Shown piece after piece: positions 3 to 62,073 of a DNA stretch of 64,000 nucleotides. The stretch is from IMG/VR virus record IMGVR_UViG_3300007352_000398. One strand, written 5' to 3'. The translations under genes and the position numbers were made by a program. Within the stretch, counting starts at the first letter, position 1, and the number at the start of each line of letters is the position of its first letter. The notes below the pieces were generated by a model. That model saw nothing but the letters and a program-made list of their open reading frames with translations, had not been told where the DNA came from and did no database searches. The stretch comes from a virus.

Positions 3-2192
3 GTCTATGACTCTGAGCGCGACCGCATCCTAGAACGAATAAAAGCCGAAGCTCCCAATCACCCCTATCTTCAACAAGTCGGAGCTACTGTTCCCGACAA
101 TGGACCCTGGGCCAAATTTAAGCACACCCAGGTGATGGGGTCGCTTTTCAAAGTTAATACAGATGTTGACTTTGAAAAGTGGTGCGACGGCAAGGGAACA
201 GATTTCATTGTCGCTGAGAAAGCAGACGGTTGCACCATTGTCGCTTACTATCAAAACGGATTTTTAACGAATCTTGCCACGCGCGGAGACGGTCACCTTG
301 GTGAAGACATCACAGCAAATGCAAAATATTTTCGAAATGTGAAACTTCAACTCCCTCACAACTTTACTGGAATTTTACGGGGCGAAGCAATCATCTATTT
401 AACAGATTTTCAAAAGCACTTCGCCCCCTTAGGGATGGCAAACCCCAGAAACGCCGCCAGTGGAAAAGTAAGGGACACTCAAAATCCAGAACTCAAACAT
501 CACGTAACTGTAAAATGGTTTGATGTTTTATCCGACACCGAATCTTTTAAGACATGGCACGATAAATTTGTTTTTCTTCAAAATGACCTTCAACTGCAAA
601 CATTAACCTTCTATCCGGCTCTTGACGGCACCCAAGTTTGGAAGTTGTTTAAGACATACTGTGTATCTAAACGTGCCTCCCTTAATTATTGGATAGACGG
701 CCTTGTTGTCAGAGTAAACAATCTTCAAAAACACGATTCATTTGGCGTTACTGATAAAAGGCCAAAGGGTGCAATTGCAATTAAATTCCCAGCAACTAGT
801 GTTATCACCAGACTGGTAGACTACGAGATTAATCGTGGGTTAGGAGGCCGTCTTACGCCTGTTGGAATTATAGATCCAGTTCAAATTGATGGAACAACTG
901 TATCTCGCGTTTCAATGCACGGCCCAGATTGGATAAAGACGATGGGCCTAGCAATTGGTGATGAAGTAGAAGTCGCTAAAGCTGGTGATATCATCCCCCA
1001 AATAGTTTCCAAACTTAAAGATTCTCCCAACAGGAAACTGATTATTTTTCCAACGACGTGCCCACTTTGCAACACGAAATTAGTTAAAAATGGAGCTTAC
1101 ATCGAATGTCAAAATAAATCGTGTGAAGGTGAAATATACGGCTCCCTTGCTAAGTGGCTATCTAAGCTTGAAATAAATGGTATTGGCGACTCTATCCTTC
1201 AGGATTTAATAAAAGACGTTCGCGATGTGGCTGCACTTTATGAGGCTCCTGTCGAAGCGTTTACCAAAGCTGCAAAAGGCAGCTCAAAAATTGGTAAAAA
1301 GATATGGAAAGAATTGCATTCTAAAAAAGAAATACCGCTTGCTGTCTTTTTAAGTGCGTTGCACATTTCCGCCCTGGGCTCAACAAATGGTCAACGATTA
1401 GCCTCAAAATTTAAAACGCTGGATGCGGTCTTAACGGCATCCGAAGACGCTATTCGCCAGATTTCTGGAATTGCTGAGAACGCAGCAAAGATACACTCAG
1501 GATTGCGTCAAAAGAAATCGCTTATTTTACGCCTTCAAAAACTTTTAGACATTCAAAATATTCAAACAGGTATCCTTTCAGGAAAGAGTTTTTGTATCAC
1601 TGGGCAACTCTCTAAACCACGCGCCGAGATCGAAACCTGGATTAAATCACTAGGCGGGATAGTTAAGGGCATTGATAAAGATTTAACATACTTAGTAACT
1701 GATTCCCCAAATAGCGGTAGTAGTAAAAATCAGAAAGCCGATAAGTATGGCATTAAAAAAATAACTGAGCAAGAATTATATGCGATTGTACCCCAAGTAA
1801 CTACACAAAATGTATCACTCCAGCAAACAGAACAACTTTTAGTAAATGTTGGTCACACCTTATCTTTATTTGATGCCATCATGTCTAGACAAACTGGTAC
1901 CATTACTGTTGCTGTATTAAAAAATAAATATCAAGTTTTAGATGCATCTTTTTTAGACTCAGGGGATCCTCAGATCAAAAAAACTCGGCTGGGATTTTCT
2001 AACTGGGATGACGCAGTAGACGATCTTGACGCAGGATCTAGTCCTCAATCTAAAAAATTAAATATTTCGTCTCAATTGAAATGGAATTCCGTTATTCTTA
2101 ATGACACCCATTTTATAGCTCCATCGTTACAAACCCTAACTGATGCTCTTTCTCACGTTACCTTTACAGCGTGGTCAGAAGGTGACATTTAA
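3..2192 (+). CDS. ligA: NAD-dependent DNA ligase (5'-truncated by window edge), with ~130-aa extension after BRCT
   Basis: Frame is open from position 3 ([27 protein letters not shown]...KHTQVMGSL). It contains adenylation motif [19 protein letters not shown]4 zinc finger (CPLC...C...C), HhH repeats and BRCT ([10 protein letters not shown]...[14 protein letters not shown]). Confidence 0.95.
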
Positions 2193-2647
2193 CGTCGCAG
2201 CAATAATACAATGGCCGTAACCGCTAAGACCGTTAACCAATTTATCGGCAAACCATGACTCCTACTAGAGGGCTGCTGCACAACAATCATTCGTGGCTCG
2301 GTTGGATATCTTATTGGTGGCGGGGGTATATACGCATAAGGATCATAATATGACGGTGTGTTATACCAAATATTTATTGGTAAATGTTTTTTATGTTTGC
2401 TATAGCTGGTATGATACCCAGAATCAAAACCGTTAGAACTGTAATCCACAGGTGCAGGAGCACCTGTTGAAATAGAACTTGGTAACACTGGTAATGGTTC
2501 TGCAGGAGGCGGTGGGGGTGGGGGTGGGGGTTCCGGGGCAGGCTCTGATGGCAGTGCAGTAGGCTCAGCCGGTGAAGGCTCTTCTCCAAAACTCCAGTAT
2601 CCAGCTAAGCCCTGATAACTACCTTTAACCCGCGAGCGAAGATACAT
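2189..2647 (-). CDS. Pro/Tyr-rich tail-anchored putative virion membrane protein
   Basis: Poly-Pro linker, C-terminal hydrophobic helix followed by RR. The N-terminus ([21 protein letters not shown]) is homologous to that of 28635..29108. Confidence 0.7.
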
Positions 2648-2877
2648 TATCTACGACTCCACAACAATCCTGTAATTAATAGAGAAATAGCCAGTGTTGG
2701 CCAATGAATGCTTCGTAATGAAGATGAATCTTTTCCGTTAGAATCTTTGTTCACAACTATAATTCTGGGCTCATCATAGGATGGGATGTCGTAGTAGTCA
2801 TAATACGGATACCCGTAACCATAATATGGCACAGGGTAAAAACCTCCCCCGTGATGTCTTCTATGTCCTTTGTGCAT
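2647..2877 (-). CDS. Small His/Tyr-rich tail-anchored protein
   Basis: EPRIIVV plus C-terminal TM (IHWPTLAISLLITGLLWSRR), paralogous to the C-terminus of 2189..2647. TAAAAT lies 6 nt upstream of ATG. Confidence 0.65.
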   Translation of the reverse strand: MHKGHRRHHGGGFYPVPYYGYGYPYYDYYDIPSYDEPRIIVVNKDSNGKDSSSLRSIHWPTLAISLLITGLLWSRR

Positions 2878-2934
2878 ATAGATATTTTACCCGAAGATTG
2901 CTTTTTTTTATAGAGAAGATGTTATAATTCTTAC

Positions 2935-59580: not shown

Positions 59581-59878
59581 ACAAATTGGCTTATTACTTG
59601 CACTTATAGGGTCAATTTGGTCATTAAAAAAATGTCCAAAATGCCAAGAACATAGCATCACTTTAGCGAAAACTGGAGTTGCAGGCTATGCATCGCTTTT
59701 AAGTGCGGACATTACAAATAAAAATCAACAATTAGAAGCATATATTAATAATGGTATTAAGATAAGTAGTGTGATGCATATCTCACTACTAACTTATATG
59801 TTATGCCATAAGTACATATGTATACCGTGTGTTGTTACAGCTCTAGGTTCTTTTATAGCATTTGCAGCTATTCAATAG
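59567..59878 (+). CDS. Small membrane protein
   Basis: Hydrophobic N- and C-terminal segments with CxxC. Confidence 0.45.
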
Positions 59879-61721
59879 TTGGCTCGACAGGCGGGGGTTC
59901 CCCACTTTGCTCAGCATTTTGTCCTGCCTTACTATACAACTCCTGAGCAATTTGATGTTGTAAAGTCATCACAGATGCTAATGCAGTCTCAATTGTCGAA
60001 AGATCATTTGAATTTTTAGCTTCTCGTAGTTTCTCAAGTTGCTGCTTGACCTCTTCATCGCGCCCAACTAGCTGTTCAGGATGCTCTTTAATCTGTCGCT
60101 CTAAGGCATCTATCAATTGATCGGCGCGGTTCTTAGCCTCAATTAGAGCTACACGTTTATTATCTTCTTCAGCATATCGCTCAGCCTCTTGCTTCATCTT
60201 TTCAATTTCATCTTTGGTAAAACCAGTATTTGCCTGAATAGTTATGTTCTTAACTTTTCCTGTTCCAAGATCCTTAGCAGCAACGTTTAATATACCGTTG
60301 GGGTCAATATCAAAAGAAACTTCTATTTTGGGCACGCCACGGCTAGCAGGTGGGATTCCATCCAATCTAAAATCACCAAGCCACCTATTATCAGCCGCTA
60401 TCCGTCTTTCTCCTTGGAAAACTTTAACATCAACAGCGGTTTGATTATTTTCAAACGTAGTAAATACCTCTTTTTTGCCTGTTGGAATTGTAGTGTTTCG
60501 TGGAATCATAACTGTCATCACCCCACCGGCCGTTTCGACCCCCAATGAAAGTGGCGTCACATCTAACAGCAGAATGTCCGTTTTTTCTCCTGCTAAAACA
60601 GCTCCTTGAACTGCTGCGCCTGCGGCCACGACTTCATCAGGGTTAACTGACTTATTAAGCTCTTTGCCGTTAAAAAGTTCTTTCAACATTTCCTGTACAA
60701 GCGGAATACGTGTTGATCCACCAACTAAAACAACTTCATCAATTTGATTAGTCTCCAGTTTTGCATCACGTAAAGCTTGCACAACAGGAGATTTTGTACG
60801 CTCAATAAGGTGTTTTACCAGAGCTTCAAACTTTGCGCGAGTTAACTCAATATCCAAGTGTAGTGGATTGTTGTCTTTTTGACAAATAAATGGAAGTGTA
60901 ACCCTAGTAGCCTTCGAAGATGAAAGTTCGCACTTTGCCTTTTCAGCTGCTTCTTTCAAGCGTTGAAGTGCAAGCTTGTCCTTGCGTAAATCAACAGAAT
61001 TTACATTCTTAAATTCTTCAGCGATGAAATTTATCAAAACCTGGTCAAAATCGTCCCCTCCCAAATGAGTGTCGCCGTTTGTTGATTTAACTTCGATAAC
61101 ACCATCACCCACTTCCAATACAGACACGTCAAACGTGCCACCTCCAAGGTCGTAAACAAGTATCTTCTGCTCTAGATTCTTATCTAGACCATATGCTAAT
61201 GCTGCTGCTGTTGGCTCATTAATGATTCTTCTGACTTTGAGTCCAGCAATTTCACCAGCATCTTTAGTCGCCTGCCGCTGAGCATCATTAAAATAGGCGG
61301 GAACCGTAATCACAGCATCAGTCACAGTCTCTCCGAGATACTCTTCAGCGTAACTCTTTAAATAAGAAAGTATCATCGCTGAAATTTGTGGAGGACTAAA
61401 TTCTGTTCCTCGAATGTTAACCTTTACGGGATCATCACCTTGGCCAGTGACTTTATAAGGGACAATTTGTTCCTCAGCCGCAACTTCATTCTTTCTACGG
61501 CCCATAAACCGCTTGATTGAGTAAACAGTGTTTTCAGGATTAGTAATTGCTTGATTTTTAGCGCGCTGACCTACAACACGCTCACCATCGTTTAAAAATC
61601 CCACTACCGATGGTGTAATCCGCGCGCCCGAAGGATTCGCAATAATTTTAACTTCAGACCCCTCCATTACAGCGACTACAGAGTTGGTCGTCCCTAGATC
61701 GATTCCAATGATTTTGCTCAT
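59868..61721 (-). CDS. dnaK: Hsp70/DnaK chaperone, canonical
   Basis: [54 protein letters not shown] and NPDEVVA. Confidence 0.97.
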
Positions 61722-61779
61722 TACACTACCTTTATGGTAAGTGTAGCGTTTTTATCCAAAGAGACAAGAGTTAAACTAT

Positions 61780-62073
61780 TTACATGCTTCTAAGCATCAA
61801 TAAAACAATTAGGGCAGCAATTGCACCTAATATTATTGGTTTTTGCATTTCTTTTGCAGTCACCGGGGCAGGAACTGGTTTCGCTGGAGTCTCCATTTGC
61901 TGAGCAGCCTTTTCAACTGCAACATCGACTGTATTAAGTAACTGTTCTTGTGAGTTTCCTAATCCTCGTCCGCGGTAACGCATAAGAGCCATCCTTTGTA
62001 ATTCTTTCGGAAGAAATTGAATTGCTTCCAAACTGTCCTTAGATTGATCTTTTTGATGTTCGTAACCAGCCAT
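61780..62073 (-). CDS. Tail-anchored protein (start revised to ATG 62073)
   Basis: AAGGAG SD; RGRGLGN; C-terminal TM. Confidence 0.7.
   Translation of the reverse strand: MAGYEHQKDQSKDSLEAIQFLPKELQRMALMRYRGRGLGNSQEQLLNTVDVAVEKAAQQMETPAKPVPAPVTAKEMQKPIILGAIAALIVLLMLRSM

Follow-up and report, generated by a model that had tools for sequence, protein, structure and literature searches.

The 64,000-nucleotide stretch of viral DNA analysed here (IMG/VR virus record IMGVR_UViG_3300007352_000398; hereafter the window) encodes tail-anchored (TA) membrane proteins in large numbers. An open reading frame (ORF) was counted as strictly TA when it had exactly one hydrophobic segment, ending no more than 15 aa from the C-terminus, and none in its first 30 aa. 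By this definition, 21 of the 87 ORFs in the window (24%) were TA, and about six more showed a looser form of the same layout. The TA observation is thus confirmed and is highly non-random. With a probability of roughly 0.55, we read these proteins as membrane components of the virion, or of its assembly, in a large phage that has a membrane but no tail; they would be inserted after translation.

Transmembrane (TM) segments were called by Kyte-Doolittle (KD) hydropathy alone, with a 19-residue window and a threshold of 1.6, and the same scan was applied to the window and to all controls. The ORF set was a greedy choice of non-overlapping frames, which gave about 84 ORFs (83-87) and left 93% of the window coding. 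A lone N-terminal anchor was found in one ORF only, and four ORFs were multi-span. The centre of the segment fell at 0.8 of the protein length or beyond in 23 of the 29 single-segment proteins, and when the protein sequences were reversed, the asymmetry flipped to 23 N-terminal versus 2 C-terminal segments.

To judge this density, the same pipeline was run on bacterial and viral sequences. Only 6 of 1,280 bacterial ORFs from 80 loci (0.5%) were TA, in agreement with the premise of the preliminary description of this DNA that such proteins are rare in bacteria. Among 14 DnaK-bearing IMG/VR contigs, none of which is from the nucleocytoplasmic large DNA viruses (NCLDV), the count was 5 of 300 ORFs (1.7%), and 50 kb of the tailed phage phiKZ gave 1 of 55 (1.8%); the controls contained no giant eukaryotic viruses. 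PRD1 showed no TA protein among 24 ORFs and ten N-terminal anchors, PM2 had 3 TA proteins among 18-21 ORFs, and SSIP-1 had 4, including the structural proteins gp34 and gp41. The excess of the window over controls was 13- to 50-fold (approximately 50-fold over bacteria), with Fisher test p values of 5e-22 against bacteria and 9e-11 against the DnaK-bearing viral contigs. The TM segments were supported, and the TA density of tailed phages was about 2%, so that the refuting outcome named in the preliminary description (unsupported TMs, or a comparable density in ordinary tailed phages) did not occur.

The layout was then followed in relatives. About a dozen loci were fetched from metagenomic relatives, and approximately 20 kb was read around their capsid-like genes; in ten of these loci, 18% of 248 ORFs were TA. 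Of the 53 orthologues of TA proteins (29-62% identity), 49 had the anchor, compared with 4 of 95 orthologues of non-TA proteins. The 282-aa TA protein gave 26 clusters in an exhaustive HMMER search of 1.84 billion representatives, and the alignments of its homologues end before the tail; yet a hydrophobic helix closes 20 of the 21 full-length homologues, and the other one is a borderline case. Since the helix is kept although the tail cannot be aligned, it is conserved as a physical feature and not as a sequence, as expected of a membrane anchor. These comparisons support the view that the C-terminal anchors are under selection.

The TA proteins and the related C-terminal membrane proteins of the window are as follows, with KD values for the C-terminal segment.
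2189-2647, minus strand: TA protein, 152 aa, tail RR, KD 2.12 at residues 132-150, FGE motif at residue 20
2647-2877, minus strand: weak TA candidate, 76 aa, tail RR, KD 1.24 (sub-threshold)
5035-5529, minus strand: TA protein, 164 aa, tail KK, KD 2.83
5590-6408, plus strand: membrane protein, 272 aa, not strictly TA, TM 231-248 with KD 2.78 and a basic 24-aa tail; a second segment at 193-211 (KD 1.85) possibly makes two TMs
6427-6744, plus strand: TA protein, 105 aa, tail KK, KD 3.03
6766-7212, plus strand: TA protein, 148 aa, tail RK, KD 2.68, LGQ motif at residue 17
7217-7861, minus strand: TA protein, 214 aa, tail K, KD 2.70
28635-29108, minus strand: weak TA candidate, 157 aa, with 15 hydrophobic residues at the very end and no basic tail; adjoins the first DnaK gene
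29483-29818, minus strand: borderline TA protein, 111 aa, tail KK, KD 1.54 (sub-threshold)
34189-34635, plus strand: TA protein, 148 aa, no tail, KD 2.32
34643-35050, plus strand: TA protein, 135 aa, tail RKKR, KD 1.88
38171-38659, plus strand: TA protein, 162 aa, heading a run of six TA genes, KD 2.05, FGQ at residue 6, -10 box 8 nt before the ATG
38696-39928, plus strand: TA protein, 410 aa, tail RRGE, KD 1.61
39928-40308, plus strand: C-terminal TM protein, 126 aa, KD 2.28, acidic 11-aa tail
40310-40660, plus strand: TA protein, 116 aa, KD 3.06
40653-40979, plus strand: TA protein, 108 aa, KD 2.13, 8-aa tail with six K/R; anchor kept in the orthologue of relative L113
40976-41224, plus strand: proline-rich TA protein, 82 aa, KD 2.45; anchor kept in the L113 orthologue
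41251-42432, plus strand: 393 aa, spermidine synthase (SpeE) domain (Pfam PF01564, E 5.6e-30) fused to an anchor at the C-terminus, KD 2.94; two of three orthologues keep the anchor, the third being cut short by the end of its locus
42781-43155, plus strand: TA protein, 124 aa, KD 1.98; anchor kept in 3/3 orthologues
44877-45287, plus strand: TA protein, 136 aa, KD 1.85; anchor kept in 4/4 orthologues
46169-46471, minus strand: TA protein, 100 aa, 18-mer with KD 1.89; anchor kept in 3/3 orthologues
46471-46779, minus strand: TA protein, 102 aa, tail KVKRAKR, KD 1.64; anchor kept in 6/6 orthologues
47495-48133, minus strand: TA protein, 212 aa, tail RKR, KD 1.91; anchor kept in 7/7 orthologues
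49146-49409, minus strand: small membrane protein, 87 aa, TM 52-67, basic 20-aa tail; anchor kept in 5/6 orthologues
50353-51201, minus strand: TA protein, 282 aa, KD 2.13; anchor kept in 9/9 orthologues
51238-51558, minus strand: TA protein, 106 aa, tail RRKKKKSS, KD 1.74; 7/9 orthologues above the anchor threshold, the other two visibly hydrophobic
59567-59878, plus strand: further C-terminal TM protein, 103 aa, KD 2.34, also with an N-terminal hydrophobic stretch; abuts the second DnaK gene
61780-62073, minus strand: TA protein, 97 aa from an ATG start, KD 2.27; the positional orthologue in L001 is likewise TA

All of these except the 59567-59878 ORF had been listed in the preliminary description as 27 proteins ending in a TM helix and basic residues and lacking signal peptides. 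Each of the 27 does show a hydrophobic stretch in its last 45 or so residues, and six of them are weak or atypical (those at 2647, 5590, 28635, 29483, 39928 and 49146). By hydropathy, none of the 27 had a hydrophobic segment in its first 30 residues, and at least one K or R followed the helix in 24 of 28 tails. The tails beyond the helix had a median length of 2 aa and mean charges of +2.2 and -0.3 (n=28). The interpretation given there was supported in part. TA topology with post-translational insertion is sound: because such an anchor helix leaves the ribosome only at termination, too late for co-translational targeting, insertion has to be post-translational and to start from soluble cytoplasmic precursors, as is established for TA proteins. 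Expansion of a paralogous family was not supported by an all-against-all BLASTP comparison, in which the TA proteins were almost all unrelated in sequence, and the proposed pairs are weak. The pair 7217/6427 is similar over 42 aa (E 1e-6), the similarity of 2189/28635 is confined to the first 23 aa, and 2189/2647 have a 12-residue patch in common.

Apart from SpeE, the TA proteins had no Pfam match, and none of them matched PHROGs. A homologue search with the 410-aa protein returned only the protein itself, and the ESM Atlas scores for the 212-aa protein were at most 0.82, which is at chance level. In the SpeE region (41251-42791), the enzyme carries a linker and then the anchor, which is conserved in L104 and L113, and the gene for AdoMet decarboxylase (SpeD) lies next downstream; from its sequence, this arrangement looks like membrane-tethered polyamine synthesis.

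The TA genes are clustered at 2.2-7.9, 28.6-29.8, 34.2-35.1, 38.2-51.6 and 59.6-62.1 kb; none falls between 8 and 28 kb, where regulators, a helicase and sugar-synthesis genes lie. They are arranged in coupled operons, such as the tightly coupled one of six successive TA genes at 38171-41224. The largest cluster adjoins two genes whose products were modelled as beta-sandwich proteins.
51953-52675, minus strand: jelly-roll protein, 240 aa, candidate capsid protein; 40-73% identity in relatives, 65 homologue clusters
54044-54583, minus strand: helix plus jelly-roll protein, 179 aa; the most conserved gene of the family (70-95% identity in relatives), predicted local distance difference test (pLDDT) score of the model 65

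Relatives share the gene order around the beta-sandwich genes (179 aa, 240 aa and 130 aa), with the TA genes following in fixed positions. The model of the 240-aa protein is an eight-strand jelly roll, whose top matches in two aligners were single-jelly-roll capsid proteins from archaeal viruses that contain a membrane (SPV1 6oj0, E 3e-4; HHIV-2 6h82, Z 8.2 over 112 aa at 3.1 A; SH1 also among the top). This predicted fold is consistent with a capsid role and is not diagnostic of one. The model of the 179-aa protein is an eight-strand sandwich with generic fold matches only. The 240-aa family profile had no match among PDB sequences, hhalign gave probabilities below 4% when the profiles of the 179-aa and 240-aa proteins were compared with every SSIP-1 protein, and PHROGs had no match for the jelly-roll proteins. 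A tblastn search of 50,697 phage records with the 332-aa protein and two jelly-roll-like proteins of L022 also gave no match.

A motif near the N-terminus connects the two groups of proteins. [FLY]-G-[QEDKS] occurs in the first 25 residues of 12 of 28 TA proteins, and also in the products of 2935-3585, 51953-52675 and 54044-54583. Among 179-aa orthologues, FGQ is preceded by anything from 3 to about 30 residues, whereas the remainder of the protein hardly changes; this is what a cleaved leader would show, and such a variable-length leader suggests a common processing step, namely a maturation cleavage. The shared [FLY]-G motif thus suggests a tie between the TA set and the structural (jelly-roll) set, and would fit a common maturation cleavage. 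The window also encodes a trypsin-like protease with an N-terminal anchor (26018-26812).

Several other genes were seen around the jelly-roll pair. An HNH endonuclease gene (52746-54017, plus strand) lies on the opposite strand between the 179-aa and 240-aa genes and is paralogous to the N-terminal portion of 19732-21735 (E 3e-56). L104, L105, L113, L115 and L117 lack the gene at this site, L107 has it and L001 retains a fragment; it looks like a mobile homing endonuclease. The arginine-rich, protamine-like products of 54744-55604 and 56669-57199 (minus strand) are paralogues with a 54-aa core of 85% identity, and two more conserved proteins with strongly basic tails are encoded at 48148-49146 and 46776-47462 (minus strand). 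The protamine-like and basic-tailed proteins are possible DNA-condensing core proteins.

To place the TA genes in their genomic setting, the remaining gene content was surveyed. About one-third of the ORFs match any Pfam family. Genes for replication and DNA metabolism comprise an NAD-dependent ligase, a clamp-loader subunit, a superfamily 2 (SF2) helicase, a DNA methylase and three HNH endonucleases; others encode a deoxy-amino-sugar pathway, glycosyltransferases, superoxide dismutase (SOD), SpeE, SpeD, the trypsin-like protease, a collagen-repeat protein and three tRNAs. Two glycosyltransferase-like paralogues (22388-23134 and 24827-25594, minus strand; 33% identity, E 4e-48) lie on either side of a gene for a DegT aminotransferase and of a tRNA-Met, tRNA-Ala and tRNA-Pro cluster (24527-24826). 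Two copies of DnaK are present.
26828-28630, plus strand: DnaK/Hsp70 copy 1 (PF00012, E 8e-201), 49% identical to copy 2
59868-61721, minus strand: DnaK/Hsp70 copy 2 (PF00012, E 5e-248), closest named relatives Planctomycetota at 60-68%

TA genes abut both DnaK genes, here and in relatives. Around DnaK, the relatives L020, L022, L104 and L113 carry an animal-haem-peroxidase-family gene, a patatin-like phospholipase gene, an adenosine phosphosulfate (APS)-kinase-like gene and a gene for a DUF502 membrane protein; the window lacks the haem peroxidase, patatin-like and APS-kinase-like genes at the matching positions.

The expression signals are bacterial, as judged from the sequence upstream of the genes. 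A TATAAT-like -10 box was found at 33 of 84 genes, versus 12% of random positions, with a sharp peak 5-7 nt before the ATG. In at least 17 genes the box ends at this distance (for example 38150-38170, 44860-44876 and 47496-48160), and a -10 box so near the ATG suggests leaderless mRNAs. Shine-Dalgarno (SD)-like GGAG/GAGG sites were found at 30 of 84 genes, versus 10% at random, and are used by operon-internal genes; the two sets of genes are largely mutually exclusive. A generic sigma-70 two-hexamer scan was uninformative (46 sites versus 43 expected). A eukaryotic giant virus, as the ligase, Hsp70 and collagen genes might suggest, was rejected on the bacterial -10 and SD signals and the bacterial-type DnaK. 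With regard to Nucleocytoviricota, the clamp loader is also of bacterial type, and no PF04451 capsid match was found among the window proteins scanned.

The relatives are metagenomic sequences only, on contigs of 86 kb to 938 kb (some of 0.53-0.94 Mb), and the contig from which the window comes measures at least 115 kb. IMG/VR scans with the 410-aa TA protein and the 240-aa profile did not find the family, nor did a search of GTDB species genomes with the family DnaK; DnaK is 73-98% identical within the family, and among GTDB species genomes nothing was closer than Planctomycetota (60-68%). Distant homologues of the 179-aa protein (29-35% identity) were found in 4 of 401 Planctomycetota genomes (G152, G356, G150 and G221). 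They lie in prophage-like islands (L129, L131, L132 and L134) that also encode a methylase of phage type, a spike-like protein and a few proteins of TA type; hallmarks of tailed phages were not found in these islands. One of the island contigs has 37% GC. These homologues tie the lineage loosely to that phylum, and the host is probably a member of the Planctomycetota. They also suggest that the jelly-roll-plus-TA module is older than the giant members. On the 86-kb contig of L105, a gene for ribosomal protein S21 (6449-6703) lies with one for RNase HII near the jelly-roll module, and such a finding has been reported for some huge phages.

On the reading that we favour, we infer that this very large, uncultured element is a virus, and likewise the virion location, the topology, the insertion route and any role of DnaK. 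The window has no Pfam or PHROG match to terminase, portal or HK97 capsid, in keeping with a tailless virus, though most of the genome lies outside it. The precursors would be kept soluble by chaperones, for which the two element-encoded DnaKs are candidates. With or without the help of a YidC-type insertase, they would then go into the cytoplasmic membrane of the host, or into a membrane that the virus induces from it, and a lattice of the neighbouring jelly-roll proteins would close around the protein-loaded membrane, in the manner of PRD1. This would place the N-terminal domains under the shell, outside the membrane, and point the short basic tails toward the DNA-filled lumen. The late modules encode about 25 proteins held by a C-terminal helix alone. 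A virion membrane is a plausible target and the best reading. The role of DnaK in TA insertion is speculative and draws on the gene neighbourhood and on work in E. coli, where DnaK/J limit the aggregation of TA proteins and insertion is aided by DnaK/J, SRP (the signal recognition particle) and YidC (PMC6794478).

Several observations weigh against this phage interpretation. The lineage is known here from sequence alone, and contigs of 0.86-0.94 Mb exceed any known phage, so that the element could be cellular or integrated. The membrane proteins of PRD1 are N-terminally anchored, and TA topology is thus not general to membrane phages. Neither the 64-kb window nor the approximately 20 kb around the relatives' capsid-like genes showed a packaging ATPase of the FtsK/HerA type; the only Walker A motif in a plausible ATPase of the window is that of the clamp loader. 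Nor was a DnaJ, GrpE, YidC, SRP or Get3-like gene found in the window. For the 240-aa protein, TNF/C1q, Ena and GOLD domains scored nearly as well as the capsid matches, all within a noise-level range. Finally, the basic tails contradict the positive-inside rule for an N-in/C-out topology: by this rule the tails should stay cytoplasmic, which is incompatible with export of large N-terminal domains that lack a signal. The basic tails may reflect insertion into a membrane without proton-motive force, or may make contact with anionic lipid or packaged DNA. The isoelectric points of the N-terminal domains of the TA proteins gave no clue to topology.

The same tails are also a misfit to a simple translocated-tail model, and this is one of the points that speak for a different use of the anchors, in which real viral TA membrane proteins act unpackaged in the membrane of the infected cell (takeover, a replication or assembly compartment, superinfection exclusion or lysis). 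A metabolic enzyme, SpeE, bears the same anchor, and some TA genes lie outside the jelly-roll module, near DnaK, ligase and regulatory genes. However, such a role does not account for the [FLY]-G motif common to 12 of 28 TA proteins and the jelly-roll proteins, nor for the fixed order of TA genes inside the jelly-roll module across relatives. Moreover, some 25 different host-membrane effectors would be unprecedented, and no endolysin gene was found nearby. We therefore regard unpackaged action as possible but rather unlikely.

The size of the relatives' contigs (0.53-0.94 Mb) raises the question of a non-viral origin, namely a very reduced cell or a giant extrachromosomal element of the Planctomycetota-Verrucomicrobiota-Chlamydiota (PVC) group, with the TA proteins serving its own envelope or organelle. 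The two DnaKs, NAD ligase, clamp loader, SOD, SpeE/SpeD, tRNAs and S21 would suit such an origin, as would the spore-surface proteins Ena, ExsFA and BclA among the jelly-roll and collagen matches and the failure of the IMG/VR scans to find the family. On the other hand, only about one-third of the ORFs have a Pfam match, and neither a ribosomal-protein operon nor RNA polymerase nor an aminoacyl-tRNA synthetase was found in the 64 kb and the relatives' loci. Three HNH homing endonucleases are present, one of which separates the 179-aa and 240-aa genes and is missing in most relatives; the DnaK query did not find the family in GTDB species genomes; and the distant 179-aa homologues reside in prophage-like Planctomycetota islands. 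Such a non-viral origin is unlikely in our judgment.

A fuller version of the phage scheme can also be drawn, in which a giant bacterial virus would build an internal membrane in the cytoplasm from a dedicated set of at least about 25 TA proteins delivered by its DnaKs, the basic tails would grip DNA condensed by the protamine-like proteins, and wrapping would replace motor-driven packaging. We hold this combined scheme to be doubtful.

Sorting signals for sortase, exosortase or PEP-CTERM systems, which are cleaved off, have exactly this layout too, a hydrophobic helix and then a K/R cluster at the very C-terminus, and PEP-CTERM systems are common in Planctomycetota. If the helices were such signals and not permanent anchors, an N-terminal signal peptide would accompany them, whereas hydropathy indicated one in 0 of the 27 proteins. 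No shared motif stands directly ahead of the C-terminal helices, and when 36 proteins were compared with NCBIfam sorting-domain models, one marginal match was obtained (MSEP-CTERM, E 0.009), so that no model was matched by more than one member. A sorting function is thus very unlikely. An artefact, such as chance, wrong ORF calls or read-through into T-rich terminators, is effectively refuted: although the calls rest on a hydropathy scan and five or six members are marginal, the pattern is kept in orthologues with different sequences, exceeds the controls 13- to 50-fold and flips on reversal.

No description of such a TA-rich bacterial element was found in the literature, and the lineage was not found in the IMG/VR, PHROGs or phage records searched. 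What is new is the scale of TA use, the near-exclusive TA topology and its occurrence in a bacterial element this large; C-terminally anchored virion proteins (PM2, SSIP-1 and vaccinia) and bacterial TA proteins, which are rare, are already known. The bacterial pathway of TA insertion is poorly understood, and an element that devotes a quarter of its local genes to TA proteins, beside its own Hsp70s, would offer a natural system for studying post-translational insertion in bacteria. The TA pattern is the strongest sequence-level sign that the lineage carries lipid. Should the element be a tailless membrane virus, this build would be extended far beyond the approximately 10-45 kb of the cultured bacterial examples. 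In addition, the conserved anchor provides a simple computational marker for relatives, and the conflict between basic tails and the positive-inside rule poses a concrete, testable question.

Among known systems, PM2, SSIP-1 and PRD1 come near the favoured reading of the element, as bacterial viruses with jelly-roll capsids and structural modules rich in small single-span membrane proteins; PM2 P3/P8 and SSIP-1 gp34/gp41 were C-terminally anchored in the same scan. PRD1 draws its membrane proteins into the host membrane and then pinches off a patch (PMC6356626). These viruses differ in having genomes of 10-44 kb with few TA proteins mixed with N-terminal anchors, whereas here about 25 TA proteins and almost no other topology are found on an element of at least 115 kb, and no sequence or profile similarity of their proteins to those of the window was found. 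In SH1/HHIV-2/HCIV-1, P23-77 and SPV1, adjacent small and larger jelly-roll genes (candidates of 179 and 240 aa here) are likewise followed by membrane-protein genes. Against a likeness to these two-jelly-roll viruses stand fold scores in the range of noise, the lack of sequence similarity and a genome several-fold to about 50-fold larger; nor was a packaging ATPase found next to the jelly-roll genes.

Poxviruses are also large DNA viruses with TA envelope proteins, such as vaccinia H3 and probably part of the entry-fusion complex, and H3 is added post-translationally to a viral membrane made in the cytoplasm (PMC6336343). However, they infect eukaryotic hosts, use a membrane derived from the endoplasmic reticulum and have a handful of TA proteins, while the window has bacterial -10 and SD signals and no NCLDV-type genes. 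In bacteria, the closest likeness in layout is offered by the E. coli proteins DjlC, Flk and TssL/SciP, which have a single C-terminal TM domain and no signal peptide. Such proteins are unrelated to those of the window and are rare (0.5% in the bacterial control), whereas here the tails are mostly basic and a mobile element encodes such proteins in large numbers.

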